Shown in pieces: positions 2,160-28,067 of a stretch of DNA of 64,000 nucleotides (positions are counted from its first letter, which is position 1; every line of letters starts with the position of its first letter). Below the pieces are notes generated by a model, which worked only from the letters and a program-made list of their open reading frames with translations, was not told where the DNA came from and did no database searches. Origin of the DNA: an uncultured Verrucomicrobiae bacterium. GTDB lineage: Bacteria; Verrucomicrobiota; Verrucomicrobiia; Limisphaerales; Palsa-1400. The stretch lies in the NCBI GenBank assembly GCA_963764165.1, contig CAVXRD010000004.1, positions 704,001-768,000 of the forward strand, in the 5' to 3' direction. A program made the position numbers and the translations under genes.

Positions 2160-2175
2160 CCCGAAAGCAATTGCA

Positions 2176-4089
2176 TTGAAAATAAGCCACCTCACCGGTC
2201 TGATATTTTTGTCCCTCAACCTTTCGGCATTTGCCGCGCCTAAGAATCACGAGTGGACGGTTGCGTCGCCAGACGGAAAATGCGCCATAACTGTTTCGCT
2301 CAGCAAAGAGGGACGCCTAAATTATCAGGCTTCTCGCGCTGGAAAAATCGTCATCGCCAACTCGCCACTTGGCCTGCGCCGTGAGGATCAGGACTTCGAA
2401 ACTTCCCTCGCATTGGATGCCGCGGGCGAAATCGAACAGCGCCGCGAAACGTATGATTTATTGGCGGGCGCCAATCCGCGCGTAAGTCATGTGCTCAACC
2501 GGCGCAGCCTGGCATTCCACAACACCAACGGCGCTTCCATTGTCATCGATCTGGCAGCAAGTGGTGAGGGTGTCGCTTTTCGTTACCGTTTTACCAATGT
2601 CTCGAGCACCGTGCATGTCGTGGAGTCCGAATCAACGGGCTTTGCCATTGGGGCGAAAGCGCGCGGCTGGCTGCAACCTTACCACGCGGCGGGACCGTAT
2701 ACGCCCGCCTATGAGGATTTTTATTTTCATGTTTCAGCCGGCGAGGCTCCGCCCGATTCGCGGCAGAAGGCGGTCGGCTGGGCTTTCCCCGCGCTTTTCA
2801 ACGTGTCTCGGTCTCATGCTTGGGTATTGCTGACGGAATCCGGAACGGATGAATCTTATTGCGCCTGCCATCTCGCGGCGGATTCGCCAGGAGGAATGTA
2901 TCGGATCGCCTTTCCGCTCTCGGACGAAACGACTCGGGGCTACACCAACAAATTCGGTCCAGAGCCGCGCTTCCGTTTGCCTTGGGTCATGCCTTGGCGT
3001 GTGATCGTCATGGCCGAGACGCCCAAAGAAATTGCCACTGAATCGCTGGTGACCGATCTGGCTGAGCCCTCAAGAATCGCGGATGCATCATGGATCAAAC
3101 CTGGTCGCGCCTCGTGGGCCTGGTGGTCGTATCCAGACGGTCCCGCCTCGAAAGCGCTCTTCGACGAATTCACGGATTTCGCGGCGAAAATGGGATGGGA
3201 ATACACACTCTTCGACGCCGGTTGGTGGGAGCCTGGATTGAGGCCCATTTCTAATCACGCCCTGAGCAAAGGTGTCCTTCCACTGGCTTGGAATTACGCG
3301 GGCGACTTTTACGACGACAAGAAGCGAAGCGACAAACTGGATGAGATGACCGCCGCTGGCGTCCGTGGAGTGAAGGTTGATTTTTGGTGTTCGGACCGGC
3401 AGGAGGCCATCGCCGCCCAGCAGGCTCTTATGAGGGATGCGGCGGCGCGCAAAATTGTGGTGAATTTGCACGGCTGCACCATTCCTCGCGGGTGGCAGAG
3501 AACATGGCCCAATTTTCTGAGCTGCGAAGCTGTCCTTGGGAGCGAATCGTATTTTTACGAGTCAAATTACACCGCGAAGGCAGCCGAATTGGACACCGTT
3601 CTTCCCTTTACCCGCAATGCCATCGGTCCGATGGATCTGACACCCGTGGCTTGTTCGCCTAAAAAATATGCGCGCACCACCACTGCGGCCCACCAATTGG
3701 CGGCGGCGCTGATTTTTACTTGCGGAATTGTTCACTACGCCGACCAGCCGGAATTTTTTGAGTCGCTGCCGCCCGAAGCACTTCAGATTTTTCGAGATGC
3801 GCCCGCACGCTGGGATGAGACCCGATGTCTCGCCGCCGACCCGGGCACCGATGTTGTTTTTGCGCGGAAGGCCGGGGCAAGTTGGTTCATCGCCGGCATC
3901 AATGGGACTTCCCAACCGCTGTTGGTCCGACTGGATTTGTCGGCATTCAAAGATTTCCCGCGCCGCACCCTGATCGCTGAGGGCGTCAATTCGCAAATGC
4001 TAGTAAGCGCCTCTCCGGTAAAGGCGTCATCATCCTGGCAGCGCAACCTTCCTGCGCGCGGCGGTTTCATCCTGCGGCTGGATCGGTGA
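2176..4089 (+). CDS. Glycoside hydrolase family 97 protein, secreted
   Basis: Signal peptide; SWIKPGRASWAWW, DAGWW, GVKVDF, NLHGCTIPRGWQRTWPN, PFTRNAIGPMDLTP and WDETR motifs. Confidence 0.88.
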   Translation: MKISHLTGLIFLSLNLSAFAAPKNHEWTVASPDGKCAITVSLSKEGRLNYQASRAGKIVIANSPLGLRREDQDFETSLALDAAGEIEQRRETYDLLAGANPRVSHVLNRRSLAFHNTNGASIVIDLAASGEGVAFRYRFTNVSSTVHVVESESTGFAIGAKARGWLQPYHAAGPYTPAYEDFYFHVSAGEAPPDSRQKAVGWAFPALFNVSRSHAWVLLTESGTDESYCACHLAADSPGGMYRIAFPLSDETTRGYTNKFGPEPRFRLPWVMPWRVIVMAETPKEIATESLVTDLAEPSRIADASWIKPGRASWAWWSYPDGPASKALFDEFTDFAAKMGWEYTLFDAGWWEPGLRPISNHALSKGVLPLAWNYAGDFYDDKKRSDKLDEMTAAGVRGVKVDFWCSDRQEAIAAQQALMRDAAARKIVVNLHGCTIPRGWQRTWPNFLSCEAVLGSESYFYESNYTAKAAELDTVLPFTRNAIGPMDLTPVACSPKKYARTTTAAHQLAAALIFTCGIVHYADQPEFFESLPPEALQIFRDAPARWDETRCLAADPGTDVVFARKAGASWFIAGINGTSQPLLVRLDLSAFKDFPRRTLIAEGVNSQMLVSASPVKASSSWQRNLPARGGFILRLDR

Positions 4090-6506
4090 ATATGATGCTA
4101 ACGAACATTTTCAAACGACTCGCTTCGCTTGCCTGGATTGGAATTGCGATGTCGTTGGTTGCCTCTGAGGATCCAGCGGGGTCATTAGAAAACCTCATCT
4201 GGTTTGATAAGCCCGCCGCAAATTTCACGGAATCCACTCCGCTGGGCAATGGCCGGCTGGGTGCGATGATGTTCGGCGGCGTCAAGGATGAGCGCATTGT
4301 GCTAAACGAAAGTTCGGTGTGGTCCGGCTCGCATCAGGACGCGGACCGCCCGGACGCCTACAAAAGCCTGCCTGAAATACAGGAGTTGCTGATCGAAGGA
4401 AAAAATGCCGAAGCCGAGGCACTCATGAACGCGAAGTTCACCTGCAAGGGCCCCGGGTCCGCCAACGGCACAGGGGATAGCCAGTTTGGATGCTATCAGG
4501 TGTTGGGAAATCTTCATTTGTCATTTTCAGGCGAGCCCGATGTGCCGTTTGAAAATTATCGCCGCGAATTAAATCTCGACGACGCGGTGGCGCGCATGGA
4601 ATTTACCCGCGGCGGCGTCACGTTTAAGCGCGAGATGTTCGCGAGCGCGCCGGATCAGGTAATGGTTTTGCGTTTGACAGCCAGCAAATCGAAACAGATT
4701 TCTTTCGACTTGCGCCTTGACCGTCCGGCGCGATTTGCAACCACCGCGGACGGCAATAATAGCCTGTTAATGACCGGCCGATTGGACAATGGCAAAGGTG
4801 GGGAGGGCATTCGCTATGCCGGCCGTGTGCGGGTTCTCATTCGAGAGGGGCAAATTTCCACTCATGGGAATCTTTTGGGCGTCAGCCATGCGGATGAAGT
4901 TCTTTTGTTGATTGCCGCCGCGACGGATTACCAGGGTTTTGCGGGCCGCCAGACAAAAGATCCGTCCGCCGCAACGCTGGACGATTTGAACAGAGCGGCA
5001 AAGAAATCTTACTCAACACTCCGCGAAGCGCACACTGCGGATTATCAAAAATACCACCGCAGAGTTTCGCTTCACCTCAACCCAACGGATTTGACGGCAG
5101 AGGCGAAGCCAACACCGGAACGTATTCGGTTGGCGAACAAAAACGGTGATCCAAGCCTGGCGGCGCTGTATTTTAATTTTGGCCGCTACTTGTTGATCTC
5201 CTCGTCCCGCCCCGGCGGACTGCCCGCAAACTTGCAAGGAATCTGGGCGGAGGAAATCCGCACGCCGTGGACGGGAGACTGGCATCTGGACATGAACGTG
5301 GAGATGAACTATTGGCCGGCGGAGGTCTGCAATCTATCGGATTTAGCGCAGCCCCTGTTCGCGCTCATAGCTTCGCTGCAAAAGCCGGGGGCGCAAACGG
5401 CCCGTGATTATTACCATGCAAACGGATGGGTGGCGCATGTGATCACAAATCCATGGGGATTTACCTCTCCGGGTGAGGTTGCTTCGTGGGGATCGACTTG
5501 CAGCGGTTCTGGCTGGCTTTGCCAACACTTGTGGGATCACTATTTATTCACGCGAGACAAAGAGTTCCTCAAATGGGCTTATCCCATCATGAGAGGCGCC
5601 GCTGAATTTTATTCCGACCTGCTGATTGAGGATCCCAGACATCATTGGCTCGTCGTCGCCCCGGCTAATTCACCGGAAAACCATTTTGAGATGCCTGACC
5701 ATCAGCAGCCGGCCATCGCTTTGGGGTCCGCCTACCAATCAGAAATCACGAGTTATTTATTCAATGCTTGCATCGAATCATCTGCGATTCTCGGTGTTGA
5801 TCAGGAGTTCCGAAGCAAGCTCGTGAGCCAGCGGAAAAAGCTTCTGCCGATCCAAATTGGACGGGACGGGCGTGTTATGGAATGGCCCGAGCCTTACAAG
5901 GAAGCTGATCCGCACCATCGGCATGTGTCGCACTTGTGGGGTTTATATCCCGGCGATGAAATCTCACCAGAAGCCGAGCCAGACCTCGCAGCCGCGGCGC
6001 GCAAAACGCTGGAAGCGCGGGGTGACAGCGGAGTGGGCTGGGCGCTTGCTTATAAGGCGCTTTTGTGGAGCCGATTGGAAAACGGCGACCACGCTTGGAA
6101 GCTGGTGCGCGCCGCGCTGGCGCCGGCCTCCGGCATGGATGTCCGGTACGATAATGGCGGCGGGGTTTATCCAAATCTATTTGACGCCTGCCCGCCCTTT
6201 CAAATTGACGGCAACTTCGGCATCACCGCCGCCATCGCGGAGATGCTTTTGCAAAGCGAAGCTGGCCGCATCCATTTGCTACCCGCGCTGCCCGCGGCTT
6301 GGAAAGACGGAATGGTTGCGGGCCTTTGCGCGCGGGGTGGTTTTGAAGCGGATATGTCGTGGAAGGACGGAGGCTTGGTTGCCGCGACGATTAAATCCGC
6401 CGCAGGCGGAACCTGCCAGGTTTCCTATCGAGGAAAAACGGTCATTGTTGGAATAAAGAAAGGAGAAAGCATCCACCTTGATGGAAGGCTTTCCCGTCAA
6501 GAATAG
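4086..6506 (+). CDS. Alpha-L-fucosidase, glycoside hydrolase family 95
   Basis: PLGNGRLGAM, FNFGRYLLISSSR, PANLQGIW, NVEMNYW, HHRHVSHLWGLYP and PFQIDGNFG motifs; GTGA overlap with upstream gene. Confidence 0.92.
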   Translation: MNMMLTNIFKRLASLAWIGIAMSLVASEDPAGSLENLIWFDKPAANFTESTPLGNGRLGAMMFGGVKDERIVLNESSVWSGSHQDADRPDAYKSLPEIQELLIEGKNAEAEALMNAKFTCKGPGSANGTGDSQFGCYQVLGNLHLSFSGEPDVPFENYRRELNLDDAVARMEFTRGGVTFKREMFASAPDQVMVLRLTASKSKQISFDLRLDRPARFATTADGNNSLLMTGRLDNGKGGEGIRYAGRVRVLIREGQISTHGNLLGVSHADEVLLLIAAATDYQGFAGRQTKDPSAATLDDLNRAAKKSYSTLREAHTADYQKYHRRVSLHLNPTDLTAEAKPTPERIRLANKNGDPSLAALYFNFGRYLLISSSRPGGLPANLQGIWAEEIRTPWTGDWHLDMNVEMNYWPAEVCNLSDLAQPLFALIASLQKPGAQTARDYYHANGWVAHVITNPWGFTSPGEVASWGSTCSGSGWLCQHLWDHYLFTRDKEFLKWAYPIMRGAAEFYSDLLIEDPRHHWLVVAPANSPENHFEMPDHQQPAIALGSAYQSEITSYLFNACIESSAILGVDQEFRSKLVSQRKKLLPIQIGRDGRVMEWPEPYKEADPHHRHVSHLWGLYPGDEISPEAEPDLAAAARKTLEARGDSGVGWALAYKALLWSRLENGDHAWKLVRAALAPASGMDVRYDNGGGVYPNLFDACPPFQIDGNFGITAAIAEMLLQSEAGRIHLLPALPAAWKDGMVAGLCARGGFEADMSWKDGGLVAATIKSAAGGTCQVSYRGKTVIVGIKKGESIHLDGRLSRQE

Positions 6507-12883: not shown

Positions 12884-14449
12884 TTAGTCAAACTGGATGC
12901 GCGGCTCATGCCACGCGTGGCCGGTTTCGGCGAGCATCTCATCGGACGCCTCGGGTCCCCATGTTCCCGCGGAATAAAATTCCCGGTTGGTCAAGGGTTT
13001 GCCGCTCCAGGCGGCGCGAATGGTATCGACGATATTCCATGCGACTTCCACCTCATCGCGGCGGATGAAGAGCGTGGCGTCCCCAACCAAGGCGTCAAGC
13101 AAAAGACGCTCGTAGGCTTCCGGCGTGTAGGCGCCGAACTCGGCGTCGTAGCTGAAATTCATCCGAACCGGACGCACACTCACGTTCATACCGGGCACTT
13201 TGCCGTTAAAGCGGAGGTATATGCCTTCGTTAGGCTGAAAGCGAAGGGCCAGCGAGTTGGAATCCAAGGTTTGCCCGCATTGTGCCGCAAAAAGAACCGT
13301 CGGTGTGGGACGAAACTGAATGCGCGCTTCGCTGGCGCTGATGGGCAGATACTTGCCGGTGCGCACAAAAAACGGAACTCCCGACCAACGCCAGTTGTCG
13401 ATAAACAGCTTCAGTGCGACATACGTTTCCACGTCCGAATTCGCTTTGACTTTGGGTTCCTGTCGGTAGCCCGGCACCTGCTGGCCCTGGATCGCGCCGG
13501 CAAAATATTGGCCGCGCACGGCCTGGCGGCAAACATCCCGGGTCGCCAGCGGGCGGATGGATTTGAGCAGTTTGACCTTTTCGTCCCGGATTGCTTCCGC
13601 TTCGAGGGAAACGGGGGGTTCCATGGCCGTCAATGCCAGGACTTGGAGAATGTGATTCTGCACCATGTCGCGCAGGGCTCCCGCTTCCTCATAATAGCCG
13701 CCGCGGGCACCCACGCCGAGCTTTTCGCTGACGGTGATTTGCACGTGGTCGATGGAGTTGCGGTTCCACAATTGCTCGAAAATGGAATTGGAAAAGCGGA
13801 ACATCAATATGTTCTGCACGGTTTCCTTGCCTAGGTAATGATCAATGCGGCAAACCTGCTGTTCGTCGGCGTGCCGGGTCAATTCCGAATTCAGCGCCTG
13901 CGCCGAAGCCAGATCGTGGCCAAAGGGCTTTTCCACGACAATTCGCTGCCAGCCGCCGTTGACCTTCCCACGCTGCAATAATTGAGCGCCGTGCAACCGC
14001 TCGACAACGTCGCCAAACTGGCTTGGTTGCGTGGCCAAATAAAACAGGAGATTCTGGCGCAGCGGCGGCGATCCGAAGGAGACGAGCAGTTTCTCCAGCT
14101 TCTCGTAGGCGGCGGCGTCTGTCATGTCGCCCGTGCAATAATGCAAATTGGCTCCGAATGCGCGCCACACATCCTCGTCCACCGGTTTGGTGCGGGAAAA
14201 ACGATCCAGCGCCTCCCGGACTTCGGCGCGCCATGCTTCGTTCGTTTTTTCCCGCCGCGCAAAACCGATGATTCGGAAATCCGCGGGCATTTGCTTGTCT
14301 CTGAAAAGATTGTAGAAAGCGGGGAGAAGTTTGCGGGCCGTCAAATCACCGCTGGCGCCAAAAATGACGATGCCGCACGGCTCCACTGGGCGCTTTTGGG
14401 CTCCAATCTGACACACCATATTTTCGCGCACATTCTCGGATACGCTCAT
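12884..14449 (-). CDS. zwf: Glucose-6-phosphate 1-dehydrogenase
   Basis: IFGASGDL, VEKPFG, RIDHYLGKE, RDMVQNH, NWRWSGVPF, EAYERLL; start uncertain (14449 or 14515). Confidence 0.97.
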   Translation of the reverse strand: MSVSENVRENMVCQIGAQKRPVEPCGIVIFGASGDLTARKLLPAFYNLFRDKQMPADFRIIGFARREKTNEAWRAEVREALDRFSRTKPVDEDVWRAFGANLHYCTGDMTDAAAYEKLEKLLVSFGSPPLRQNLLFYLATQPSQFGDVVERLHGAQLLQRGKVNGGWQRIVVEKPFGHDLASAQALNSELTRHADEQQVCRIDHYLGKETVQNILMFRFSNSIFEQLWNRNSIDHVQITVSEKLGVGARGGYYEEAGALRDMVQNHILQVLALTAMEPPVSLEAEAIRDEKVKLLKSIRPLATRDVCRQAVRGQYFAGAIQGQQVPGYRQEPKVKANSDVETYVALKLFIDNWRWSGVPFFVRTGKYLPISASEARIQFRPTPTVLFAAQCGQTLDSNSLALRFQPNEGIYLRFNGKVPGMNVSVRPVRMNFSYDAEFGAYTPEAYERLLLDALVGDATLFIRRDEVEVAWNIVDTIRAAWSGKPLTNREFYSAGTWGPEASDEMLAETGHAWHEPRIQFD

Positions 14450-14765
14450 AAGAGGAATCAAGTTAGCCACACATTGAACCTCAGAACAATAAAGGATAAC
14501 GAGACTTGCCGTCAACAGCGGGCCTCATTCAGATTGCCGGCGATTTCCCAATGCGCTTTAAATTTGAACCGCAATCAGCGCATCAGCGTTGAAGGGGCGC
14601 AGAAAGTTTGATTCAGGCTCGAAAATATTAAAATTTCCCTTTTTATTCCTGCTTTAAAACGATAGAAAGTTGACGTTGTAACCAGATGTCCCAGCGTGTC
14701 TAAGAATGAACCACGAACGAACTCGGTTTCCGGCAGATGCTCTGCCGATGTTATGATCATTGCCT

Positions 14766-16715
14766 ATGAATCCTAACCGTGACCTCTTCAAGCTAATTTC
14801 CACCGTTTCGCTGTGCGGCATATTATTGACTCTGGACTTTTCCGCCATGGCAGGCCCCGATGCGGGTGATCAAGCCGAAGTCATCCAGCAGGCCGCCAAG
14901 TATATCCTGGCGGCGAACAAATCCGAGGAAGCCCCGGCTGCGGGAGGAAAGGCCATTGATGCAGATGCTGAGCACGCAAAACTGTTTGTGGAGAACAAGT
15001 ACCCCTCCGCCGCCACTTGCCGGACTTGCCACCCAAATCATTACAGAGAGTGGTCGGTTTCCGCCCACGCCTACGCGCAATTGAGCCCAGTCTTCAACGC
15101 CATGCAGGCCACCATCACTCGGAACACTGCCGGCGCCAATGGAGATTTTTGCATTCGCTGCCACGATCAGGTGGGGATGAATTTGGGAGAATCCACCTTT
15201 AAGAGCAACATGGACCGGCACCCGACTTCGCGGGAGGGCATCACCTGCATTGTCTGCCATCGGTTGCGCAACGACTATGGCAAGGTCAGCGGACGGTTCG
15301 CCTTGGTCACAGGCGACATTCTTCAGCCGGTTTACGGACCGACAGGCGATGCGGAACTCAAGCGCGTTCTTTCCGAGCCCAATACTTATCGCGTCGTGAC
15401 GAAAGAAGGCGAAGCGGGCAGGAAAATTCATACCGACATCGAAAAATTCCCCGCTCTTCGGACCCCTGCGTTTTGCGGCACCTGCCACGATGTCAATTTG
15501 TTCAATGGATTCCGCTTGGAAGAAGCATTCAGCTCGTTCAAGAATTCGGCCGCCGCCCACCGGGGCGAGACCTGCCAGGATTGCCACATGGGAAAAGTGC
15601 CCGGCATCAAATCCGGCTACGCGGAAGAGCCCGCCGCCATCGTTGGCGGCGTGCCGACGAAACCCCGCCGCCGGACCAATCACATGTTTGCGGGACCGGA
15701 TTATTCCATCGTGAACCGCGGTTTCTTTCCGCATAACGACAAGGCTGCCGCCCTGGCCAGCATGCGGGAATGGCTCACGTTCGATGACAAGGCAGGTTGG
15801 GGAACTGATAAGTTTGAGAATAGCGTGCCCAAGGATTATAAATTCCCACCCCGCTGGACCTCCGTGGATGATCGATACGATGCGCGAGCCATTCTCAATG
15901 AGCAGTACGGGCTCCTCGGGGAAATCAAGAAACAACGAGTGGCCATTCTGCGCCAAGGCTATCAATTGGGCGATTTGAAAGTCCTCCAAGCGAATTCCAA
16001 GGGCCTCAAGTTCAAGATACAAGTCCACAATGGCACCGATGGCCACAACGTTCCCACTGGATTCGATGCGGAGCGCATTAGCTACATGCAGGTTTTTGTG
16101 ACCAACGCCGCTGGCAAATTAGTTTTCCAATCGGGCGACCTCGATCCCAACGGCGACGTGCGCGACATCCATTCCTCCTACGTGGAAGAAGGCAAGCTTC
16201 CTTGGGATAAGTATCTTTTCAAATTGCAATCCCCGTTCATCACCACCGAATTGCACGGCGGGGAGCGCGAACAGGTTCTGGCGGTAAATTACTCCATAGA
16301 TCCGCTGCCTTTCATTCGCCCTCCAGGTTCTGCCATGAATCTAACCGGCCGTTCGCCTGGAGCGCGGATCCAGAGGCGCGGGATGGAAGCATTCAACAGC
16401 CGCTGGCCTGAATATAAGGTGAAGGCCTCGGAATTGACCGATCCCGGTCCATATACAGTCAGAATTCGCTTCCTGGCGGGCATGGTCCCTGTGAACCTCA
16501 TCACCGAAATCGAAAAGGCCGGGTTTGATTACAGCATGTCCCCTCGCGAAGTGGCCGACGCGATCAAAAACGGGCAGACTCTGTTGTATGACAAGCAAGT
16601 GATGCTGCAACTCGACGGAACCCAGCCGACGATCGACTTGTCCAAAATTATGGATAAAGACGTGCTCGTTGATTCAACCAACACTGTCTCATCTTCCTCC
16701 TATGCGCAGAAGTAA
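14766..16715 (+). CDS. Secreted pentaheme c-type cytochrome (c554/c552-like N-terminus, beta-rich C-terminus)
   Basis: Signal peptide; five CxxCH: CRTCH, CIRCH, CIVCH, CGTCH, CQDCH. Confidence 0.88.
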   Translation: MNPNRDLFKLISTVSLCGILLTLDFSAMAGPDAGDQAEVIQQAAKYILAANKSEEAPAAGGKAIDADAEHAKLFVENKYPSAATCRTCHPNHYREWSVSAHAYAQLSPVFNAMQATITRNTAGANGDFCIRCHDQVGMNLGESTFKSNMDRHPTSREGITCIVCHRLRNDYGKVSGRFALVTGDILQPVYGPTGDAELKRVLSEPNTYRVVTKEGEAGRKIHTDIEKFPALRTPAFCGTCHDVNLFNGFRLEEAFSSFKNSAAAHRGETCQDCHMGKVPGIKSGYAEEPAAIVGGVPTKPRRRTNHMFAGPDYSIVNRGFFPHNDKAAALASMREWLTFDDKAGWGTDKFENSVPKDYKFPPRWTSVDDRYDARAILNEQYGLLGEIKKQRVAILRQGYQLGDLKVLQANSKGLKFKIQVHNGTDGHNVPTGFDAERISYMQVFVTNAAGKLVFQSGDLDPNGDVRDIHSSYVEEGKLPWDKYLFKLQSPFITTELHGGEREQVLAVNYSIDPLPFIRPPGSAMNLTGRSPGARIQRRGMEAFNSRWPEYKVKASELTDPGPYTVRIRFLAGMVPVNLITEIEKAGFDYSMSPREVADAIKNGQTLLYDKQVMLQLDGTQPTIDLSKIMDKDVLVDSTNTVSSSSYAQK

Positions 16716-18204
16716 GAGGCTCTCAATATGTTTGACTGACGCGCTCCGTGAACTCGCGTGTTTGTGCTTCATCGCCGCTTTGACCGCTGCCAAAGCGGAT
16801 GACACCAATGACACCGCCCGTTTCTCCGATAAACCGGTTCCGCTGGCGACAAATACATTTCTGCAGCGCCCGCCGCCGCTCATAGAGTTGGGGGATCATT
16901 TCCTGGGCAACGGCAACCTGCAAAAAGGAATCAAGCTCCCAACAGGAGAAGTGATTTCACCCAACTTCTGGGTGTTTGGCACGATGCGCTCCGCTGTCCA
17001 GACATTCGACCCTGGGAAAGGCGAACCTCGCATCTCCGAATGGGCCAATCGCCTGGACATTTATGGCAATCTTCAGTTCACACCAACTGAACGCCTTGTG
17101 GTTGGGTTCCGCCCGCTCGACCGCCAATATACCCAAAACGGAGAAGTCAGCGATGTTTTTACCGGCTATCGGATTGAGCCGGTGCATTCGCCGGGTTCTC
17201 TTGTGAATGGCCAGGGAACTGTGGAAGCGTTCGGCGCCACGCCTCGCACGCTCTTCTTTGAGGGCGAATTCGGTGAAATGTTTCCCACGCTTGATAAGCA
17301 CGACAAACTGAGCCTCGACTATGGTTTTTCGATTGGCCGCCAGCCGCTGGTCATGCAGGATGGCCTCCTTGCCAATTCCTATGACGTGGACATGCTCAGC
17401 ATCACGAGAACGTCCATGCAGATTCCGGGGGGGTCGACTTTGCGCGTATCGGCCATCGCGGCTTGGAGTGATATCCAGGGACAGAATTACAATGTGCCGG
17501 CAAATATCCCAACATACAATTATCAGGACGCCCATTTTTTCGGCTTTGACGGAGCAGCGGATTTCCCGCGGAGCACGATTGAGGCAAACGTTCTATATGG
17601 AACGTCTGGGAATCACGGGGACGGACTTTACGCTGGCCTGGCATCCATTCAACGGTTTGGGAAGCTCAACACCACTTTCCGGGGAGTCACTTCGGTGGCG
17701 GTGGATGGCGACAGCAGCGCTACAGGGGTGAGCAGAGTGGCGACGGGCACGCTGTTGCTGAGCGAGCTGTCGTATCCGATGCTGGGATCGAAGGATTTTG
17801 TTTACATGGATGCCTACTGGGGCATCGACCGCTTCACCTCCATCGTACGCGACTCCGACGCTGGGGGGCCTCTGGGGAATGTTGGCATTCTGACGGCGGC
17901 CACGGGGCTCGGATCGTATGCGGCGCCTCTTGGAGATCAGCCGGAGCACTCCGCAGGGGGGGCGCTTGGTTACCAGATGTTCATCGGCGCTCGGCGAAGA
18001 CAGCAGTTGGTTTTCGAAATTGGCGGGCGGGCGCAAACGCAAACCCCCAAGTTTGAGCGCCAGGAACCAGCCGAGGGATTTGGCGTGCAGTACCAGCAAG
18101 CCGTTGGCCAGCGGTTCATCATGGTTCTAGAGGGCTTTGCCGTAAACCGCAGCGACTATGGAGGATCCTATGGCACGCGCATGGAATGGGTGACCAAATT
18201 CTGA
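16702..18204 (+). CDS. Putative outer-membrane beta-barrel (porin-like) protein
   Basis: Signal peptide ending AAKA; many alternating aromatic/Gly beta segments; C-terminal MEWVTKF ending in Phe. Confidence 0.7.
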   Translation: MRRSKRLSICLTDALRELACLCFIAALTAAKADDTNDTARFSDKPVPLATNTFLQRPPPLIELGDHFLGNGNLQKGIKLPTGEVISPNFWVFGTMRSAVQTFDPGKGEPRISEWANRLDIYGNLQFTPTERLVVGFRPLDRQYTQNGEVSDVFTGYRIEPVHSPGSLVNGQGTVEAFGATPRTLFFEGEFGEMFPTLDKHDKLSLDYGFSIGRQPLVMQDGLLANSYDVDMLSITRTSMQIPGGSTLRVSAIAAWSDIQGQNYNVPANIPTYNYQDAHFFGFDGAADFPRSTIEANVLYGTSGNHGDGLYAGLASIQRFGKLNTTFRGVTSVAVDGDSSATGVSRVATGTLLLSELSYPMLGSKDFVYMDAYWGIDRFTSIVRDSDAGGPLGNVGILTAATGLGSYAAPLGDQPEHSAGGALGYQMFIGARRRQQLVFEIGGRAQTQTPKFERQEPAEGFGVQYQQAVGQRFIMVLEGFAVNRSDYGGSYGTRMEWVTKF

Positions 18205-18212
18205 GTGATCTT

Positions 18213-19463
18213 ATGGACCTTTCCAAACTGCTAGTTGGAGCCGGAGGAATTTTGTTTGTTTTGGTGGCGATTGATTTGGCAATGCTTTGTTACACAAGTT
18301 TCAGCCGCGCTGCCGCGATGGGGGCCGCGCGGGAAAATGAAGGTGAATTGCTTTCCGCGCGGCTGGCCATGGCCCGCCTGCAACTCAAGCGGCAGGAGAA
18401 CATTGGATCGTGGAATGGGACGCGGAAGTTTACGGTCGATAAAGTAGTGACGGAATGCGCGGATGTCGCATCCTACTATTTGGTGCCTCACGACAACAAG
18501 CCGTTGCCGCACTTTTTTCCTGGGCAGTTCCTCACGTTTGAATTGAGCATCCCGGGGCAGCGCAATCGCGTCGTTCGCTGCTACTCGCTCTCAGACCGCC
18601 CAAGGCCCGACTACTATCGCGTCACCATCAAACGCGTTCCCGCGCCGCCCGACGGCAAGCCGGGATTGGTCTCCAATTTCTTCCATTCCTCCGTCAAGGC
18701 GGGCGACATTTTGGACGTCAAGGCGCCGAGTGGCGGCTTCTATCTGGATACAAGCCGGCTAACACCAGTGGTGCTGCTGGCAGGCGGCGTGGGCGTGACT
18801 CCGATGGTGAGCATGGCCAACGAAATCATGACCAATACTCCGCAGCGCGAAACATGGTTTTTCTTCTGCGTGCGCAATGCGCTGGATCACATCATGAAAG
18901 AGCAGTTGGAAGAATTGGCAAAAGCCAATGACAAGCTCCGCCTTCACGTCTGCTACTCCAAGCCAGGCAAGACCGACAGCGCTGGCAGGGACTATCGTCA
19001 CGAAGGCAGGCTGGATTTGGCTTTGCTGAAGAAGGAACTGCCGTCCAACAATTTTGATTTCTTCATGTGCGGCCCGGGTGCGATGATGAGCGACCTGCAC
19101 GAGGGGTTGCTGGAATGGGGCGTTGACGAGGAACGAATTCATTTGGAAGCATTCGGGCCTGCCAGTGTCAAGAAAACCGCTCCACCCGCCCCGGCATTGG
19201 CCGAACCGCAACTTAAGGTCACATTCTCGCGTTCCAATTGCGAAGCCGCGTGGTCCGGCAAAGAGGAAAACTTGCTCGACATGGCGTTGGCTCAAGGGGT
19301 ATCGATCAGTTCCGGTTGCCGTGCTGGAAATTGCGGCAGTTGCAAAACTGCCGTCAAATCTGGCAAAGTGAAGTATCGCAAACGCCCCGGTTGTGACGTT
19401 GAATCGGGAAGTTGCCTCACATGCATTGCGGTGCCGGAGAGCGATTTGTGCCTTGATGCGTAA
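18213..19463 (+). CDS. Membrane-anchored FAD/NAD(P)H oxidoreductase (FNR family) with C-terminal 2Fe-2S ferredoxin
   Basis: N-terminal TM helix; PGQF, RCYSLS, G.VSNF, AGGVGVTP, FMCGP, EAFG; CRAGNCGSC...C. Confidence 0.9.
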   Translation: MDLSKLLVGAGGILFVLVAIDLAMLCYTSFSRAAAMGAARENEGELLSARLAMARLQLKRQENIGSWNGTRKFTVDKVVTECADVASYYLVPHDNKPLPHFFPGQFLTFELSIPGQRNRVVRCYSLSDRPRPDYYRVTIKRVPAPPDGKPGLVSNFFHSSVKAGDILDVKAPSGGFYLDTSRLTPVVLLAGGVGVTPMVSMANEIMTNTPQRETWFFFCVRNALDHIMKEQLEELAKANDKLRLHVCYSKPGKTDSAGRDYRHEGRLDLALLKKELPSNNFDFFMCGPGAMMSDLHEGLLEWGVDEERIHLEAFGPASVKKTAPPAPALAEPQLKVTFSRSNCEAAWSGKEENLLDMALAQGVSISSGCRAGNCGSCKTAVKSGKVKYRKRPGCDVESGSCLTCIAVPESDLCLDA

Positions 19464-19511
19464 AGGATTAGTTGGAATCGTGGATCGAACAATTTTTAAA
19501 TTATTACTGAA

Positions 19512-20504
19512 ATGAATACGCGAAAATTGGCATTGGCCGTCAGTCTGGTGATCTCCCTCGTTGCGCTCGACTTGCGCCATCCCGCCCAGGCAGCCGAGGA
19601 TCTTTACCATGCCGATCCGGCCAAGGTTATGGGGCCGGAAAGCTGCAATGAATGCCACGCCCCGATGGTGGAAGCCTGGAAGCTGACTCACCATTACGAC
19701 ACGTTCAACTCGATGCATCGGAAGCCGGAGGCGAAGGATATCGCCACGAAAATGGGCATGCGCCGCATCAAGGACGAAAGCCTTTGCCTCAAGTGCCATT
19801 ACACCGACAAAACCGATGACACTGGCAAAGTTGTGCCTATCTCCGGCATCTCCTGCGAATCCTGCCATAGCGCCGGCAAGGATTGGATCAAGATCCATAG
19901 CGCCACCAACGAACCCGGCCATCTTGAAAAAGCCGAAAAGCTCGGGATGCTTTTGCCCAGCAATTTCTATGCGGTTGCCGCCAACTGCTTCTCTTGTCAC
20001 ACGGTGCCAGAAGAGAAACTTGTCAATGTTGGCGGACACAAGGCCGGCAGTGATTTCGAGTTGGTTTCGTGGCTGTCGGGCGAAGTCCGCCACAATCTTC
20101 AAAAATCCGGCGGCAAAGTGAATGCGGAAATTCCGGTCGAGCGCCGCAGGATGTTTTATATCATTGGCCGCGCCCTTGATTTGGAATTCAGCCTGCGCGG
20201 CCTGGCCAAAGCGACCGAGGATGGCGCGTATGCAAAGGCGATGCTCGCGCGGGTTGCCGACTCTCAGGCGAAGATGGCAGAAATCGCAAAAGCGTCCGAT
20301 TTGCCGGAGGTCAAGAAGATGCTGGATACCGTCAAAGCGGACGATTTGAAACCCGGAAACGCGGACAAGGTAACGAAAATGGCTGATGAAATAAGCGGGA
20401 TCAGCAGCGGATTGGCAAAGAGCCAGGACGGATCCAAGCTCGCCTCGGTTGACGGGCTGATTCCGGGACCGGATAAATACAAAGGGACCCCTTACAAACC
20501 GTAG
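19512..20504 (+). CDS. Secreted tetraheme cytochrome c554-like protein with helical C-terminal domain
   Basis: Signal peptide; CNECH, CLKCH, GISCESCH, CFSCH. Confidence 0.88.
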   Translation: MNTRKLALAVSLVISLVALDLRHPAQAAEDLYHADPAKVMGPESCNECHAPMVEAWKLTHHYDTFNSMHRKPEAKDIATKMGMRRIKDESLCLKCHYTDKTDDTGKVVPISGISCESCHSAGKDWIKIHSATNEPGHLEKAEKLGMLLPSNFYAVAANCFSCHTVPEEKLVNVGGHKAGSDFELVSWLSGEVRHNLQKSGGKVNAEIPVERRRMFYIIGRALDLEFSLRGLAKATEDGAYAKAMLARVADSQAKMAEIAKASDLPEVKKMLDTVKADDLKPGNADKVTKMADEISGISSGLAKSQDGSKLASVDGLIPGPDKYKGTPYKP

Positions 20505-20670
20505 CTGGGTTCAATGGGGCCGGCCAGGTATGAACTTTTGCCGCCGCGGTGGCGTCATTCACAGGCTGGTCAGACGGGTTGCGGATGCTTTGCAGACCCC
20601 CAACTGCATGGCGTCCCTTCGCGCAAATTTAACTCGGATCAATCGAATTTAATGACGAAGCTGTCTGGTT

Positions 20671-22413
20671 ATGGCCGAAGATTCTCAAGGCATTAAGCGC
20701 CCAAGACGCTGGGATGTTCCATTCCAAAGCGAGTTGGCGGAGACGGCGGCCAATCCGATGTCCGAACAGGACGTGGAGCGGTTGATGCAAATCCCTCTTT
20801 TTAAGAAGATGGATCCGAATCGTTTCCCGCCGACCACGCCGTTGCGCGACATTCTTATCAACGACGGCCGGTTGCGCCGTTTCAAATCCGGGGACATTAT
20901 AGTCCGCCAAGGGGACTATGGAAATTCGGCCTTCATTGTGCTTTCTGGTTCGGCGACTGTCGTTCTCGACAAACTCGGAGACGAAGTCACTGGGCGCAAG
21001 CAGCCGACCCGCAAAAGCTTTTTCGACGCCCTGGCGCAGTTGTGGACCAACCCTAAACTGCCTGAAGTTCGCAACCTGACGGAACGCCGCGCTCCGCGGC
21101 CGGTTGGCCAGACGGACATCATCCCCAAGTCCGAAGCGGTGTTCGTCCAAGACATCAACGTCATCATCAAGGACAAGAAAAAAGTGAACTTGCCGGCGGG
21201 CGAATTGTTCGGTGAAATCGCCGCCCTAAGCCGCACGCCGCGCACGACGACCGTGATCGCCGGCGCCGATTCGGAGATGCTGGAGATTCGATGGCAAGGA
21301 TTGCGGGAAATCCGAATGCATGCCCCGCAATTCAAAGCGTACGTGGACAAACTCTACCGCGATAACAGCCTTATAAATCATCTGCGCGAAACCGCGATGT
21401 TCAGCCGTCTGGACGACGCGGCCTTGGAGCGCGTCGCCGCCTCGACCGAGTTCCTGACGTTTGGAAATTTTGAATGGTATGCCGCCTACTCAAAAATTCG
21501 CGAGGCCACCGCTTCGGAACGAATCCACGAAGAGCCCATTGTCGCGCAGGAAGGCCATTATCCCAACGGCGTTTACCTGATACGCAGCGGATTCGCCCGC
21601 TTGAGCGAAGCGTATAATAATGTCGAACGCACTGTCAGCTATTTGGGTCGCGGACAGACGTTTGGTTTTGAGGAAGCCGCGACAAATTGGAAGAAAAAGT
21701 CGGATGTGCCATTTCAGCGCACGCTCCGGGCGGTCGGCTATGTGGACGTTTTGTTTGTGCCAACGTCCGTCCTGGAACAGCATGTTTTCCCAACGATTCC
21801 CGCCGCTGAGATTCCGCAGGTGGAAGAGCGCGCTGGCAGCCGCGGATGGAGCCCGGAAAGCCCCGACACGAAAATCAGCAGCGAGATGATGGAATTCGTC
21901 GTTGAGCAGAGGTTCATCAACGGAACCGCTGCCATGATCATCGACATGGAGCGCTGCACGCGCTGCGACGATTGCGTCAGAGCCTGCGCCGCCACGCATG
22001 ACAATAATCCGCGCTTCCTGCGGCATGGGCCTATTCAAGACGGGTTCATGATCGCCAACGCCTGCATGCACTGCCAGGATCCTGTCTGCATGATTGGATG
22101 CCCCACTGGAGCGATCCACCGCGAATCCGCGCATGGCCGCGTCGTTATCAACGATCAGACTTGCATCGGATGCGCCACCTGCGCGAATAGTTGCCCTTAC
22201 AATAATATTCAAATGGTGACCGCGCGAAATAAAGATGGCCGCCCTTTTTTCGACCAAGCCACGAATCAACCAATTCAGAAGGCTGCCAAATGCGACCTTT
22301 GTTCAACGCAGATCACCGGCCCGGCGTGCGCCAACGCCTGCCCGCATGACGCTCTTGTCCGGATGGATATGAGGAGCGTCGACAAATTGGCGGAATGGAC
22401 GGGCCGCCGATGA
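20671..22413 (+). CDS. Tandem cyclic-nucleotide-binding domains fused to a DmsB/NrfC-like 4x[4Fe-4S] ferredoxin
   Basis: RQGDYGNSAFIVLSG...FGEIAALSRTPRTTTV; second domain QEGHYPNGVYLIRSG; CTRCDDCVRAC, CMHCQDPVCMIGCP, CIGCATCANSCP, CDLC..PACANACP. Confidence 0.9.
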   Translation: MAEDSQGIKRPRRWDVPFQSELAETAANPMSEQDVERLMQIPLFKKMDPNRFPPTTPLRDILINDGRLRRFKSGDIIVRQGDYGNSAFIVLSGSATVVLDKLGDEVTGRKQPTRKSFFDALAQLWTNPKLPEVRNLTERRAPRPVGQTDIIPKSEAVFVQDINVIIKDKKKVNLPAGELFGEIAALSRTPRTTTVIAGADSEMLEIRWQGLREIRMHAPQFKAYVDKLYRDNSLINHLRETAMFSRLDDAALERVAASTEFLTFGNFEWYAAYSKIREATASERIHEEPIVAQEGHYPNGVYLIRSGFARLSEAYNNVERTVSYLGRGQTFGFEEAATNWKKKSDVPFQRTLRAVGYVDVLFVPTSVLEQHVFPTIPAAEIPQVEERAGSRGWSPESPDTKISSEMMEFVVEQRFINGTAAMIIDMERCTRCDDCVRACAATHDNNPRFLRHGPIQDGFMIANACMHCQDPVCMIGCPTGAIHRESAHGRVVINDQTCIGCATCANSCPYNNIQMVTARNKDGRPFFDQATNQPIQKAAKCDLCSTQITGPACANACPHDALVRMDMRSVDKLAEWTGRR

Positions 22414-23219
22414 CGCTCGTCGCGCGCCGATATCTTGGCTGGGGGGTTTTGCTGGCGGCTGCTGGCGCTGCATGGCTTGGAGATTTTGCTTTGCGGGTTC
22501 ATTTGCGGCGGAGCGAGCTGCGGACCGGCGTCGCCCTTTTCGCGACAGTCATTTTATTGACGCTTTTCAACGCGCGGAAAAAGCTGCCCTTCCTCCCGCT
22601 GCTTCGCGCTTCCACATGGATGCAAATTCATATTTACGCGGGGTTGTTTAGCTGCGTTTTGTTCGCGCTCCACGTCGGGTGGAGATTTCCGCGCGGCACC
22701 CTTGAGACGGTCCTCGCGGTGCTGTTTTGTTTGGTGTCGGCTAGCGGCGTGGTTGGGCTGGTGCTTTCCCGGCGGTTGCCTTCCCAGCTTAATACCTCTG
22801 GGGAAAACGTCATATTTGAGCGAATCCCGGCCTTGCGCGCGGCGCTGAGGAGCGAAGTGGAAGCGTTAGTTCTCGAATCCGTCGCTAAAACTCAATCCTC
22901 CACCATCGCGGATTTCTACCAGCTTAAGCTGCAAGGCTATTTTGCCCGCCAGCGCCATGTCTGGCAGCACGTCGCCGGATACGATAAACCAATCTTCAAA
23001 CTGGTTTCCGAAGTGCAGGCGCTCGATCGCTATCTAAACCTGGAGGAGCGTGGCATCATGACATCTGTGCTGGAGAAAGTTTTGGCCAAAAACCACCTGG
23101 ATGTCCAACTCGCCCGGCAAGGCCTGCTCAAAGGCTGGCTCTTTGTGCACATCCCACTCACCTACTCAATGATTCTCGTGGCAACAGTGCACGGGTTCGT
23201 GGCGTGGAAACTTTCATGA
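22410..23219 (+). CDS. Integral membrane protein with four intramembrane His (putative diheme cytochrome b / ferric-reductase-like TM domain)
   Basis: Several hydrophobic helices; WMQIHIYAG, FALHVG, WLFVHIPL, ATVHGF; ATGA overlap with upstream gene. Confidence 0.65.
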   Translation: MTLVARRYLGWGVLLAAAGAAWLGDFALRVHLRRSELRTGVALFATVILLTLFNARKKLPFLPLLRASTWMQIHIYAGLFSCVLFALHVGWRFPRGTLETVLAVLFCLVSASGVVGLVLSRRLPSQLNTSGENVIFERIPALRAALRSEVEALVLESVAKTQSSTIADFYQLKLQGYFARQRHVWQHVAGYDKPIFKLVSEVQALDRYLNLEERGIMTSVLEKVLAKNHLDVQLARQGLLKGWLFVHIPLTYSMILVATVHGFVAWKLS

Positions 23220-23229
23220 GGCTTCCCTG

Positions 23230-25367
23230 ATGCGCCGCCTCCAGGAATTCGGTTTCGAACAGAGCTCTTACGAGCGGCCCAATCAAAAGTGGATCTGCGG
23301 GCGCGCATGCGAGGGCAAATGCTGCCTGGCCGGGCCGGATGCCAAGGGCAACTGCAACGCTTCCGCCGAATGCCGCCCCTTGCGAAAGGGCGACCGCTGG
23401 CAATGCGCGCGCCCGGCATTTCTTGGCGGCCCGTGCGCCGACGGCCCGCTGCCGGATGGCAAATGCTGCCGGGCCATTCCCAAATGCACACCGATTCGCA
23501 GCTTGCGTTCCTGGCGGGGAATTGCGGTCTCTCTCGTTGTGGCCATCACACTGGGATTTCTCTTGCTTGCCTTCGGCTCGCGGCGTGGAAGCCAAGTGCT
23601 CTCCCCTGGTGAGCTCACATTTTCGCACAGCTTCATGGGCGACGATTGCACAAGCTGCCATGGCGCGGCGGGCGGGCGTCCGGCCGCTTGGGGGGCGGTG
23701 ACAGCAGGCTCGATAGGAGCCCACGACAACAGCGCGCTTTGCCTCAACTGCCACAGCGTTGGCGCCGCGCCTCTCCAGCCGCACTCCTTATCGTCTGCGC
23801 AGCTGCAAAGCTTGAATCGTTCGCTTGTCAATCGGGACGGGTCGGGCAAGCCCCCCCTCACCTTGGCGCTGGCATCATTTGTGTCGCACCCGAATCCGCA
23901 CGGCGAAGAGGGCGCCGCAGGCCTCGCATGCGCATCCTGCCACAAGGAGCATCGCGGAAAGGATGCGGATCTCCGGAAACTTTCCAACGATCAATGCCAG
24001 AACTGCCACGCCACTCAATTCAAGAACTTTGCCAGCGGACATCCGCCATTTTCCCACTATCCCACGACCCGCCGCACGCGCATCATCTTCGACCATCTGT
24101 CTCATTTGAACACGCATTTTAAGGATGCGTCTGTGGCGAAATTCGCTCCCGGCTCCTGCCTGGATTGCCACCAAACCGACCTGCGGGGCCAAACAATGGT
24201 CGTCAAATCGTTTGAAGCAGCGTGCGCGTCCTGCCATGACGACCAGATCAAGGGCAAATCCGCTGTCAAGACTGGTATCCCGTTCATTAACATTCCTCGC
24301 ATGGACGACCGCGCGCTCTCTGGCGAATTTTCCATTGGCGAATGGCCCGAAGATGCGGATCAGCCAATTACGCCGTTTTTGCGATTTCTTCTTTCGTCCG
24401 ATCCAGCGATGCGCGATTCCCTGGCGAAACTCAAGGGAACTGATCTTTCAAATTTGCCAAAGACCAATGCGGTAATATTGAAAGCCGCCCAGACGGTCGC
24501 TTGGGGCGTGAAATCACTCATCCTCGATCTCGAAACGCAGGGGCAGCCTGAGATGGTGAAGCGCGCCGCCTCGTCCTTGAATCGCACACTTTCCGATCAC
24601 GAAATTGAGGGGCTCGTGGCATTTCTCGGCACAGAATCGCTGCGGGCCGCGTTCCAATCAGCCTTTCCGAATCTGCAAAAGGAACTTCTCGATTACCGCA
24701 AGAACTCAAAGCCCGCCGCGACGAAATTGGTATCGTCACCAGAATTGGCGGCTCCCGGTCCGATTAAGCCTCCGCCCGCAGATGTGCAGGTGGGACAAGG
24801 CGGTTGGTATAGCGCGGATGGTTCGTTCACGCTATCCTACCACCCGCGCGGACACGCAGACCGTTTTCTCAGCTCGTGGATGAGCTTGACGGTGGACGCC
24901 AGCAAGACGACTGATCCGGCGAGCGCGAGTGCGCTCTTTAACGACCTTTCCGCGCCGAAGGCGGTTGGCCTCTGCGCCAAGTGCCATAGCATTGACGATG
25001 CGCCAGTGAAATTGGTCAATTGGATGCCGCTGGAACCCGATCAAACAGAGCACGGTTTCACCCGCTTCGCGCATTCGCCACACCTCAGTTTGCTCGACAA
25101 CAGGGGATGTTTGACTTGCCATTCGTGGGCGACATCAGATGGAACGGGCAAAGATTCCTACGCCGCCGCATTCGATCCAGGCCAGCGCGATCCTTCCATA
25201 TTTCACAGCAATTTTCAAACGATCGACAAATCCCGGTGCGCGAGCTGCCACCAGCCCCACCAAGTGCGTGAGGATTGCCTGCTCTGCCACAATTATCACA
25301 TCGGAAACTTCAAGCCCGTCGTGGCTCACGCAAAGTTCATTCCCGCCACGCCCGCCAGAATTGCTAA

Positions 25368-25371
<4 letters not shown>
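23230..25371 (+). CDS. Membrane-anchored decaheme c-type cytochrome with Cys-rich N-terminal domain
   Basis: 11 Cys before a TM helix, then ten CxxCH (CTSCH, CLNCH, CASCH, CQNCH, CLDCH, CASCH, CAKCH, CLTCH, CASCH, CLLCH). Confidence 0.88.

Positions 25372-28067
<2,696 letters not shown>

Follow-up and report, generated by a model that had tools for sequence, protein, structure and literature searches.

The ptd locus

Here, we describe a seven-gene cluster of multiheme cytochromes and partner redox proteins in the genome of an uncultured Verrucomicrobiae bacterium. The cluster lies in a 64,000-nucleotide stretch of contig CAVXRD010000004.1 (assembly GCA_963764165.1), called the window below, and coordinates refer to positions in it. 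Specifically, 14766..25371 (+) contains seven co-oriented open reading frames (ORFs), named PtdA to PtdG after the published ptd nomenclature (Table 1). They carry 19 CxxCH motifs, five in PtdA, four in PtdD, and ten in PtdG; gene order and motif number are those given by an earlier reading made from the letters and ORF translations without database searches (the sequence-only reading). Judged by the likely start codons, A and B overlap by 14 bp and E and F by 4 bp, and the remaining gaps are 8 bp (B–C), 48 bp (C–D), 166 bp (D–E), and 10 bp (F–G). Composition gives no sign of recent transfer (cluster GC 0.55-0.59, genome 0.56-0.57). Scans of the cluster for promoters, terminators, and CRP boxes, the last with a consensus motif, returned nothing above shuffled sequence.

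Table 1. Genes and motifs of the ptd cluster (window coordinates)
Feature	Position	Strand	Description
PtdA	14766..16715	+	Secreted pentaheme cytochrome; C-terminal immunoglobulin (Ig)-like domain; PHC/c552/MccSep-like fold
PtdA R250-L-E252-E253	15513..15524	+	Aligns with MccSep C239/C240 and a Cys of 5ZE8
PtdA H427-x-x-P-T-G-F433	16044..16064	+	F433 at the MccSep Sec325 position
PtdB	16702..18204	+	Predicted outer-membrane beta-barrel, about 18 strands, solute-channel-like
PtdC	18213..19463	+	N-terminal membrane helix; FNR-type FAD/NAD(P) domains; [2Fe-2S] domain
PtdD	19512..20504	+	Secreted tetraheme, c554-like
PtdE	20671..22413	+	CNB-1 canonical, CNB-2 degenerate; HydN/DmsB-type 4x[4Fe-4S] domain
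PtdE CNB-1 phosphate-binding cassette (F-G-E ... P-R-T)	21208..21249	+	
PtdF	22410..23219	+	Inner-membrane protein; two WX3HX13H motifs and SGXXG
PtdG	23230..25371	+	8-Cys domain; one membrane helix (residues 97-115); periplasmic decaheme
PtdG 8-Cys domain	23296..23487	+	Unannotated; ahead of the membrane anchor, predicted cytoplasmic

The sequence-only reading knew of no characterized system with this composition, but the literature does not support a claim of novelty. The cluster is of an already described kind, and the new copy extends that kind to Verrucomicrobiota. First, ptdABCDEFG has been named, and its function called completely unknown, by Elbon, Stewart and Glass (bioRxiv 10.1101/2023.11.21.568154). 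As described there, its products match those of the window in kind and order: a beta-sandwich pentaheme protein, a porin, an FAD/NAD(P) oxidoreductase, a tetraheme protein, a cyclic-nucleotide (cNMP)/4Fe-4S protein, a ferric-reductase-like membrane protein, and a decaheme protein. In both cases PtdA is homologous to the pentaheme c552 of T. tepidum. The preprint reports ptd from marine or saline Proteobacteria, Nitrospirales, and Planctomycetes, whereas the copy described here groups with Verrucomicrobiota; orthologues of the window genes occur in the reported taxa (Alphaproteobacteria, Gammaproteobacteria, Nitrospirales, and Planctomycetota). PtdE of the window has 16 Cys, enough for four clusters, versus two in the ptd description.

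Second, PCC4 comprises a porin, periplasmic 4-, 5-, and 10-heme cytochromes, and an inner-membrane protein, and it was found in iron-oxidizer genomes and proposed as an extracellular electron transfer conduit to the quinone pool (He, Barco, Emerson and Roden 2017, PMC5566968). The PCC4 membrane protein has two WX3HX13H motifs and SGXXG, and PtdF has all three. Five transmembrane helices were described for it, whereas the hydropathy profile of PtdF shows four segments above 1.5; a fifth, at the N-terminus, is plausible. In PCC4 subgroup II, a pfam13247 gene directly precedes the membrane protein and a redox gene precedes the tetraheme gene, as they do here. In the accessible text of that paper we saw no discussion of cNMP domains, and the word "verrucomicrobia" is absent from its main text. 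The match of the window to PCC4 and to ptd rests on architecture and motifs rather than on direct comparison of gene sequences. In a literature search conducted mostly outside subscription journals, we came across no publication that connects PCC4 to ptd, nor any experimental work on the two.

Our preferred reading, to which we assign roughly even chances, is that this PCC4/ptd-type operon encodes a gated inner-membrane relay feeding a periplasmic pentaheme enzyme that sits behind a solute channel.

Conservation and distribution of the cluster

Of the 600 pattern matches obtained from GTDB genomes, a PtdB profile marked at least 454 as relatives, and the best 80 loci were fetched (loci and genomes carry our L and G numbers). 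PtdA lies directly before PtdB in all 80 of these porin-containing loci, and all seven genes are present in 35; many of the others are cut by contig ends. Chance clustering is thus excluded. In metagenome contigs found with a PtdA query, B follows A in 63 of the 66 loci with at least 700 bp downstream (14 were left uncounted). Two of the misses are artefacts of the counting rule, and one, L130, is a true exception. Accordingly, the expectation that the genes stay together in other genomes holds. The hosts include Verrucomicrobiota, Planctomycetota, Nitrospirota, Nitrospinota, Proteobacteria, and Bacteroidota, among others. On a quick PtdA tree, the window copy falls nearest to a row from Verrucomicrobia subdivision 3, with which it shares 71% identity; the host thus probably belongs to this subdivision. 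The distribution is patchy: PtdB was not found in any of 30 genomes of the same family, and it was found in 2 of 30 other genomes of the same order. A PtdF search of plasmids gave no match.

The subunits are not retained equally. Across 27 full loci, mean identity is highest for PtdA (59.8%) and lowest for PtdG (39.5%). At least five long loci hold A-B-D alone, and some loci lack PtdC or retain just a 155-aa Fer2 protein in its place. PtdA-B(-D) is the fixed core, and PtdC, PtdE, and the 8-Cys domain of PtdG are optional cytoplasmic input. The near inseparability of A and B, together with the A-B-D-only loci, is one basis for placing an enzyme behind a channel. Conversely, two Phycisphaerae loci (L167 and L168) have E-F-G homologues but neither A nor B within about 20 kb, and in one of them a CHASE2 cyclase directly adjoins the genes. 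Thus, E-F-G is a reusable inner-membrane module that needs no porin.

These partial loci raise the alternative of two loosely tied modules, in which PtdABD would be a periplasmic uptake-and-enzyme unit drawing on the general electron pool, PtdEFG(C) would be a separate cNMP-tuned inner-membrane unit that frequently accompanies it, and no single chain would join them. One A-B-D-only genome (G064) has two PtdE copies elsewhere, and some clusters are divergent (GFED / ABC) rather than co-linear, both as this arrangement would predict. The complete clusters, spread across many phyla, argue the other way, as do two Nitrospirales genomes with a distant ptd-like cluster of about 27% identity (L081:6116-14939 and L082:5754-14709) in which A-, B-, D-, E-, F-, and G-like genes are still neighbors. 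Specifically, a pyridine-nucleotide oxidoreductase is fused there to the cNMP-Fer4 protein, and the fusion gene is followed by F-like and FHA-decaheme genes and faces the D-, A-, and B-like genes. We regard separate modules as quite improbable and retain the relay that feeds an enzyme behind a channel.

Two further patterns emerged among the loci. In a variant from Bacteroidota, KSB1, and Acidobacteriota (L060, L067, L073, L075, and L080), PtdD is about 690 aa long with 7-8 hemes, the locus lacks PtdC, and the PtdE cassette lacks the Arg in the four copies aligned. ResB-like cytochrome c maturation genes stand beside the cluster in 12 of the 80 loci (L015, L017, L023, L026, L027, L035, L038, L042, L045, L048, L050, and L071).

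A pentaheme protein and its barrel

By sequence, PtdA has five c hemes and an Ig-like domain and is periplasmic, as MccSep is. Pfam and NCBIfam give it a c554-like domain. In the PDB, T. tepidum c552 (5ZE8, E 1.7e-6) is the sole match within an E threshold of 0.01; with a profile, that match reaches E 8.6e-15, and MccSep (9WT8) appears weakly, at E 0.019. MccSep has been shown to be a periplasmic enzyme that reduces polysulfide; four of its hemes are bis-His, heme 2 is ligated by His and Cys239, and the protein contains Sec325 (Mihara et al., bioRxiv 10.1101/2025.11.18.688581). ExtKL and c552 have been placed in one pentaheme (PHC) family (PMC11976967). As far as their descriptions go, MccSep/ExtKL (Geobacter) and c552 share with PtdA the five hemes, Ig-like domain, H-x-x-P-x-G loop, periplasmic location, and a porin gene in the cluster.

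Differences concentrate at heme 2. We counted residues in the 70 orthologues from loci with at least 80% coverage. Five His beyond the CxxCH motifs are invariant (70/70). The heme-2 Cys of MccSep falls at L251/E252 in the alignment, within a motif that is nearly invariant (R250 70/70, E252 69/70, E253 68/70) and that reads R-L-Q-E in the distant Nitrospirales pentaheme protein. Residue 433 is never Cys: 65 of the 70 orthologues have Phe there, and the others have Leu or Val. Mature PtdA has no Cys outside its CxxCH motifs. Because both the heme-2 Cys ligand and the Sec/Cys are absent, we do not expect MccSep polysulfide chemistry, and we rejected PtdA as a polysulfide reductase. PtdA is also about 200 residues longer than MccSep and, unlike it, has its own inner-membrane relay. 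As the best-conserved subunit, with near-invariant R250, E252, and E253 at the MccSep active-site position, PtdA is likely the catalytic subunit, and its heme-2 pocket would differ from that of MccSep. The enzyme reading also draws on the MccSep fold that PtdA follows, since the MccSep gene cluster likewise holds a porin proposed for substrate uptake.

The predicted model of PtdB (pLDDT, the predicted local distance difference test score, 87.6) is a beta-barrel of about 18 strands by count, which bears out the earlier description of a beta-barrel-like protein. Its best fold matches are the solute channels MOMP, Occ, and AlgE. MtrB is absent among the fold matches listed, which by itself excludes nothing. 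No Pfam or NCBIfam family matches PtdB, and its profile found no significant PDB sequence. The barrel carries many conserved charged residues and is preceded by a conserved N-terminal segment. The MtrB barrel has 26 strands; thus, the smaller count and the solute-channel folds argue against an Mtr-type wire, and PtdB is predicted to be a narrow outer-membrane solute channel.

The chief alternative is a trans-envelope conduit, in which PtdA would dock in or under PtdB and, like MtoAB/PioAB, trade electrons with metals or humics outside the cell, while D, G, and F would provide the connection to quinone or NAD(P)H. The constant adjacency of A and B would suit such a conduit, and the conserved N-terminal segment of PtdB could bind PtdA. 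The presence of PCC4 in iron oxidizers (PMC5566968) and the high transcription of ptdAB in an ocean oxygen-deficient zone (bioRxiv 10.1101/2023.11.21.568154) have been reported, and the PHC fold has been likened to the archaeal nanowire cytochrome AvECN (PMC11976967). The cluster also resembles MtrCAB/MtoAB/PioAB in placing a porin gene beside a secreted multiheme protein and, as in MtoAB/PioAB, in having no outer cytochrome. The partner there, however, is an MtrA-type decaheme rod, whereas here it is a PHC-fold pentaheme protein, and the decaheme protein (PtdG) is anchored in the inner membrane, unlike the MtrA-type porin partner. Scores against the MtrA/DmsE-type decaheme model TIGR03508 (PtdA 27.8, PtdG 28.8) lie below its cut-off of 192.2.

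Besides the size and likeness of the barrel, the large Ig-like domain of PtdA and its resemblance to a tetrameric periplasmic enzyme speak against a conduit. We saw no lipobox in the ordinary secretion signals of PtdA and PtdD, and accordingly no lipoprotein or other surface-exposed cytochrome is evident among the cluster proteins. The porin beside ExtKL, ExtI, was suggested to take up selenite or tellurite and was not needed for Fe(III) citrate reduction (PMC5877670). We therefore consider the conduit unlikely, and the delivery of electrons to the cell surface proposed in the sequence-only reading loses ground to a periplasmic enzyme supplied through a channel.

That preference faces real objections. 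The invariant fifth spare His of PtdA (H70) could itself ligate heme 2 and so close the proposed site, although H70 is not seen in two distant homologues. The MccSep alignment is weak and could be one residue off, and the nanowire likeness of the PHC fold pulls toward electron carriage. Moreover, electron transfer at the cell surface can involve small barrels, Cyc2 being an example.

The proposed inner-membrane relay

PtdF carries the motifs W70-H74-H88, S112-G116, and W243-H247-H261; the four His stand in 46 (H74), 48 (H88), 47 (H247), and 47 (H261) of 48 orthologues, and both WX3HX13H motifs occur in 77 of 80 rows. The membrane protein with four His in the earlier reading is thus confirmed. 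Among 80 members, PF01794 matches 18 weakly and DUF4405 matches 60, weakly so for the window copy; the nearest Atlas cluster (0.97) is named ferric-reductase-like. A PtdF profile found no significant PDB match (none under E 0.47). Its conserved motifs suggest that PtdF is likely a ferric-reductase-type cytochrome b with two hemes. The sequence-only reading had found no quinone-coupling protein here. The PCC4 counterpart was proposed to bind two b hemes and to be possibly quinone-active (PMC5566968), and ten genomes keep PtdG (nine also PtdF) with no PtdE orthologue found anywhere in the genome. PtdF and PtdG can therefore work without PtdE, and PtdF itself may be the link thought missing.

PtdG has a single membrane helix preceded by a basic stretch, which predicts a cytoplasmic N-terminus. 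In the decaheme part, ten His beyond the CxxCH motifs are invariant in 41-42 of 42 orthologues. PtdD likewise has four CxxCH motifs and four invariant His beyond them (62/62); it matches cytochrome c554 (1BVB, E 3.5e-6) and is c554-like in Pfam/NCBIfam. In both proteins the number of spare invariant His equals the number of hemes, which suggests bis-His carriers: PtdD is likely an all-bis-His electron carrier and PtdG an all-bis-His wire.

The 8-Cys domain of PtdG was overlooked in the sequence-only reading. It consists of two 4-Cys repeats (W-x-C...C-x2-GP-x3-G-x-C...C-x-P), and its eight Cys are invariant in 31 rows. Pfam gave no match, and the best PDB sequence match has E 0.18. A search for the domain gave 631 representatives; of the 134 long proteins among the top matches, all but one (133) are PtdG-type. 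Among the 52 GTDB loci with PtdG, the domain is present in 37, all with PtdE, and absent in 15: three with a divergent PtdE whose cassette lacks the Arg, and 12 without PtdE, one of them truncated. In four metagenome loci, PtdE and PtdG are present and the domain is absent. Thus, the 8-Cys domain is seen only alongside PtdE, and PtdE does not need it. We suggest that it may be a metal-binding dock for PtdE.

PtdC contains FAD, NAD, and Fer2 domains (PF00970, PF00175, and PF00111) and keeps its four Fe-S Cys in 43 of 43 orthologues, yet it is an optional subunit, as its absence from some loci shows. The pyridine-nucleotide input that the sequence-only reading assigned to this protein gains support from the distant Nitrospirales fusion, in which the NAD(P)H flavoprotein and the cNMP-Fer4 protein form one chain. 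In L039 (11416-11883) and five related Nitrospirales loci, PtdC has shrunk to about 110-180 aa where PtdE is lost; that of L039 is the Fer2 domain alone.

PtdE and cyclic nucleotides

Pfam and NCBIfam find two cNMP domains (CNB-1 and CNB-2) and a HydN/DmsB-type Fer4 domain (PF13247) in PtdE. Of its 16 Cys, 12 are kept in 40 of 40 orthologues and four in 38 of 40. A functional cNMP-binding domain has a cassette with Gly-Glu and Arg. In CNB-1 this cassette is conserved (G181 and E182 40/40, R191 36/40, T192 30/40), and in CNB-2 both the cassette Glu and the Arg are absent. Two cNMP-binding domains had been claimed: both are present, but the canonical binding cassette belongs to the first alone.

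We surveyed class III cyclases (PF00211) in the host genomes of 50 of the 80 loci, chosen for having the most flank. A cyclase is present in all 35 genomes with PtdE (34/34 without G066), in none of the ten that keep PtdG without PtdE, and in all five A-B-D-only genomes. Background frequencies are 39/61 for Nitrospirales and 36/61 for Phycisphaerae genomes. Seven of the 61 Nitrospirales have ptdA, six lacking both PtdE and a cyclase and one having both; four of the seven were already counted in the first set. A cyclase gene flanks the cluster in 8 of 50 loci, against 0.86 expected. The intact CNB-1 pocket and this co-occurrence support the cNMP control proposed in the sequence-only reading.

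Several observations temper this support. On the PtdA tree (quick method, 49 rows, L066 and L079 left out), the loci lacking PtdE fall in three or four places beside PtdE-positive kin, so the independent evidence amounts to a handful of events rather than ten. About 40% of background genomes have no cyclase anyway, and several of the PtdE-less genomes are small. Two of the eight cyclase-flanked loci lack PtdE, and the flank pattern was not repeated in metagenomes (1/80 loci, 254 kb of flank). Finally, none of the four cyclases encoded in this genome is near the cluster.

Domain fusions hint at a different role, in which the hemes would catalyze nothing but would sense a ligand or the redox state of the periplasm and signal it to a cNMP/FHA/kinase network in the cytoplasm. 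FHA domains are fused to G-, C-, and E-like homologues, and cyclase, FHA, and kinase genes lie near some loci. The seven proteins, however, have no output domain (HTH, kinase, or cyclase) that we could find, and the combination of 19 c hemes and an NAD(P)H flavoprotein is better suited to carrying electrons in bulk. We judge redox sensing very unlikely and continue to favor the gated relay. Among PtdE homologues, some carry extra fused Fe-S domains, and a search for longer forms found nine FHA-containing fusions and no flavoprotein fusion. Planctomycetota proteins P0241-P0249, about 1230 aa long, combine cNMP, FHA, and 16-Cys Fer4 domains with about 430 unannotated N-terminal residues.

A proposed electron path

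In the relay that we favor, NAD(P)H would reduce PtdC (FAD, [2Fe-2S]), and PtdC would pass electrons to the [4Fe-4S] clusters of PtdE, where cAMP or cGMP (cyclic AMP or GMP) bound at CNB-1 would act as the gate. PtdE would in turn reduce the two b hemes of PtdF, which possibly receives quinol input too. From PtdF, electrons would travel through the ten hemes of PtdG to PtdD and on to heme 2 of PtdA, whose distal side would be the Arg/Glu pocket. There, PtdA would act on a small solute admitted through the narrow PtdB channel; our guess at the substrate is a small N or S oxyanion, or peroxide. We infer the cofactors, contacts, order, direction, and gating of this chain against the background of the observed gene content, conservation, motifs, and co-occurrence and of the predicted barrel.

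Genomic surroundings

A further argument for the enzyme reading is that the genome holds a separate multiheme cluster with a barrel-like protein, outside the window (G000:C1:23514-33305). There, a 656-aa barrel-like protein ending in Phe is encoded amid cytochromes with 4, 9, 11, and 6 hemes, of which the 9-heme one has a lipoprotein-like start, and heme-synthesis and ResB-like genes lie nearby. This second cluster is a better candidate than the ptd cluster for a true porin-cytochrome conduit.

Within the window, an MGH1-like GH63 gene (25368-28067) overlaps the PtdG stop by 4 bp; we rejected it as a cluster member, as it follows the cluster in just one stored locus, L087. A glucose-6-phosphate dehydrogenase gene (12884-14515, reverse strand), an NADPH source, is divergent from ptdA and occurs in none of the stored loci. 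Consecutive glycosidase genes of families GH36, GH97, and GH95 occupy 21-6506. Positions 28980-64000 form a mobile region of lower GC that encodes a ThiF protein, a serine recombinase, IS66 and another DDE transposase, an RHS repeat protein, a coupling-protein-like ATPase, a replication-relaxation protein, a WGR-ligase, and a primase, together with 839-aa and 834-aa ORFs without a Pfam match.

Implications

PCC4 and ptd are one system, present in many phyla including Verrucomicrobiota, and recognizing this joins two separate records. What goes beyond the printed composition is the size of the barrel, the pocket of PtdA, the association with cyclases, and the 8-Cys domain; barrel size, the cNMP pocket, the 8-Cys domain, and the cyclase link are not among the points described in the accessible text of the ptd preprint. 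PCC4 has so far been counted as an extracellular electron transfer candidate. Should PtdB prove to be a solute channel and PtdA to be an enzyme, then PCC4 ought not to be taken as a marker of iron oxidation or electroactivity.

In its boldest form, which is possible but doubtful, our proposal is that PCC4/ptd would be the first second-messenger-gated respiratory-type chain. In this form, a 4x[4Fe-4S] protein gated by bound cAMP or cGMP, for which a new 8-Cys metal domain would serve as the dock, would send NAD(P)H electrons across the inner membrane to a new class of pentaheme enzyme, with an Arg/Glu pocket replacing the Cys/Sec of MccSep and with its own solute channel, and would not feed a surface wire. 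If PtdE is truly cNMP-gated, a second messenger would here control an electron-transfer chain directly, at the post-translational level.

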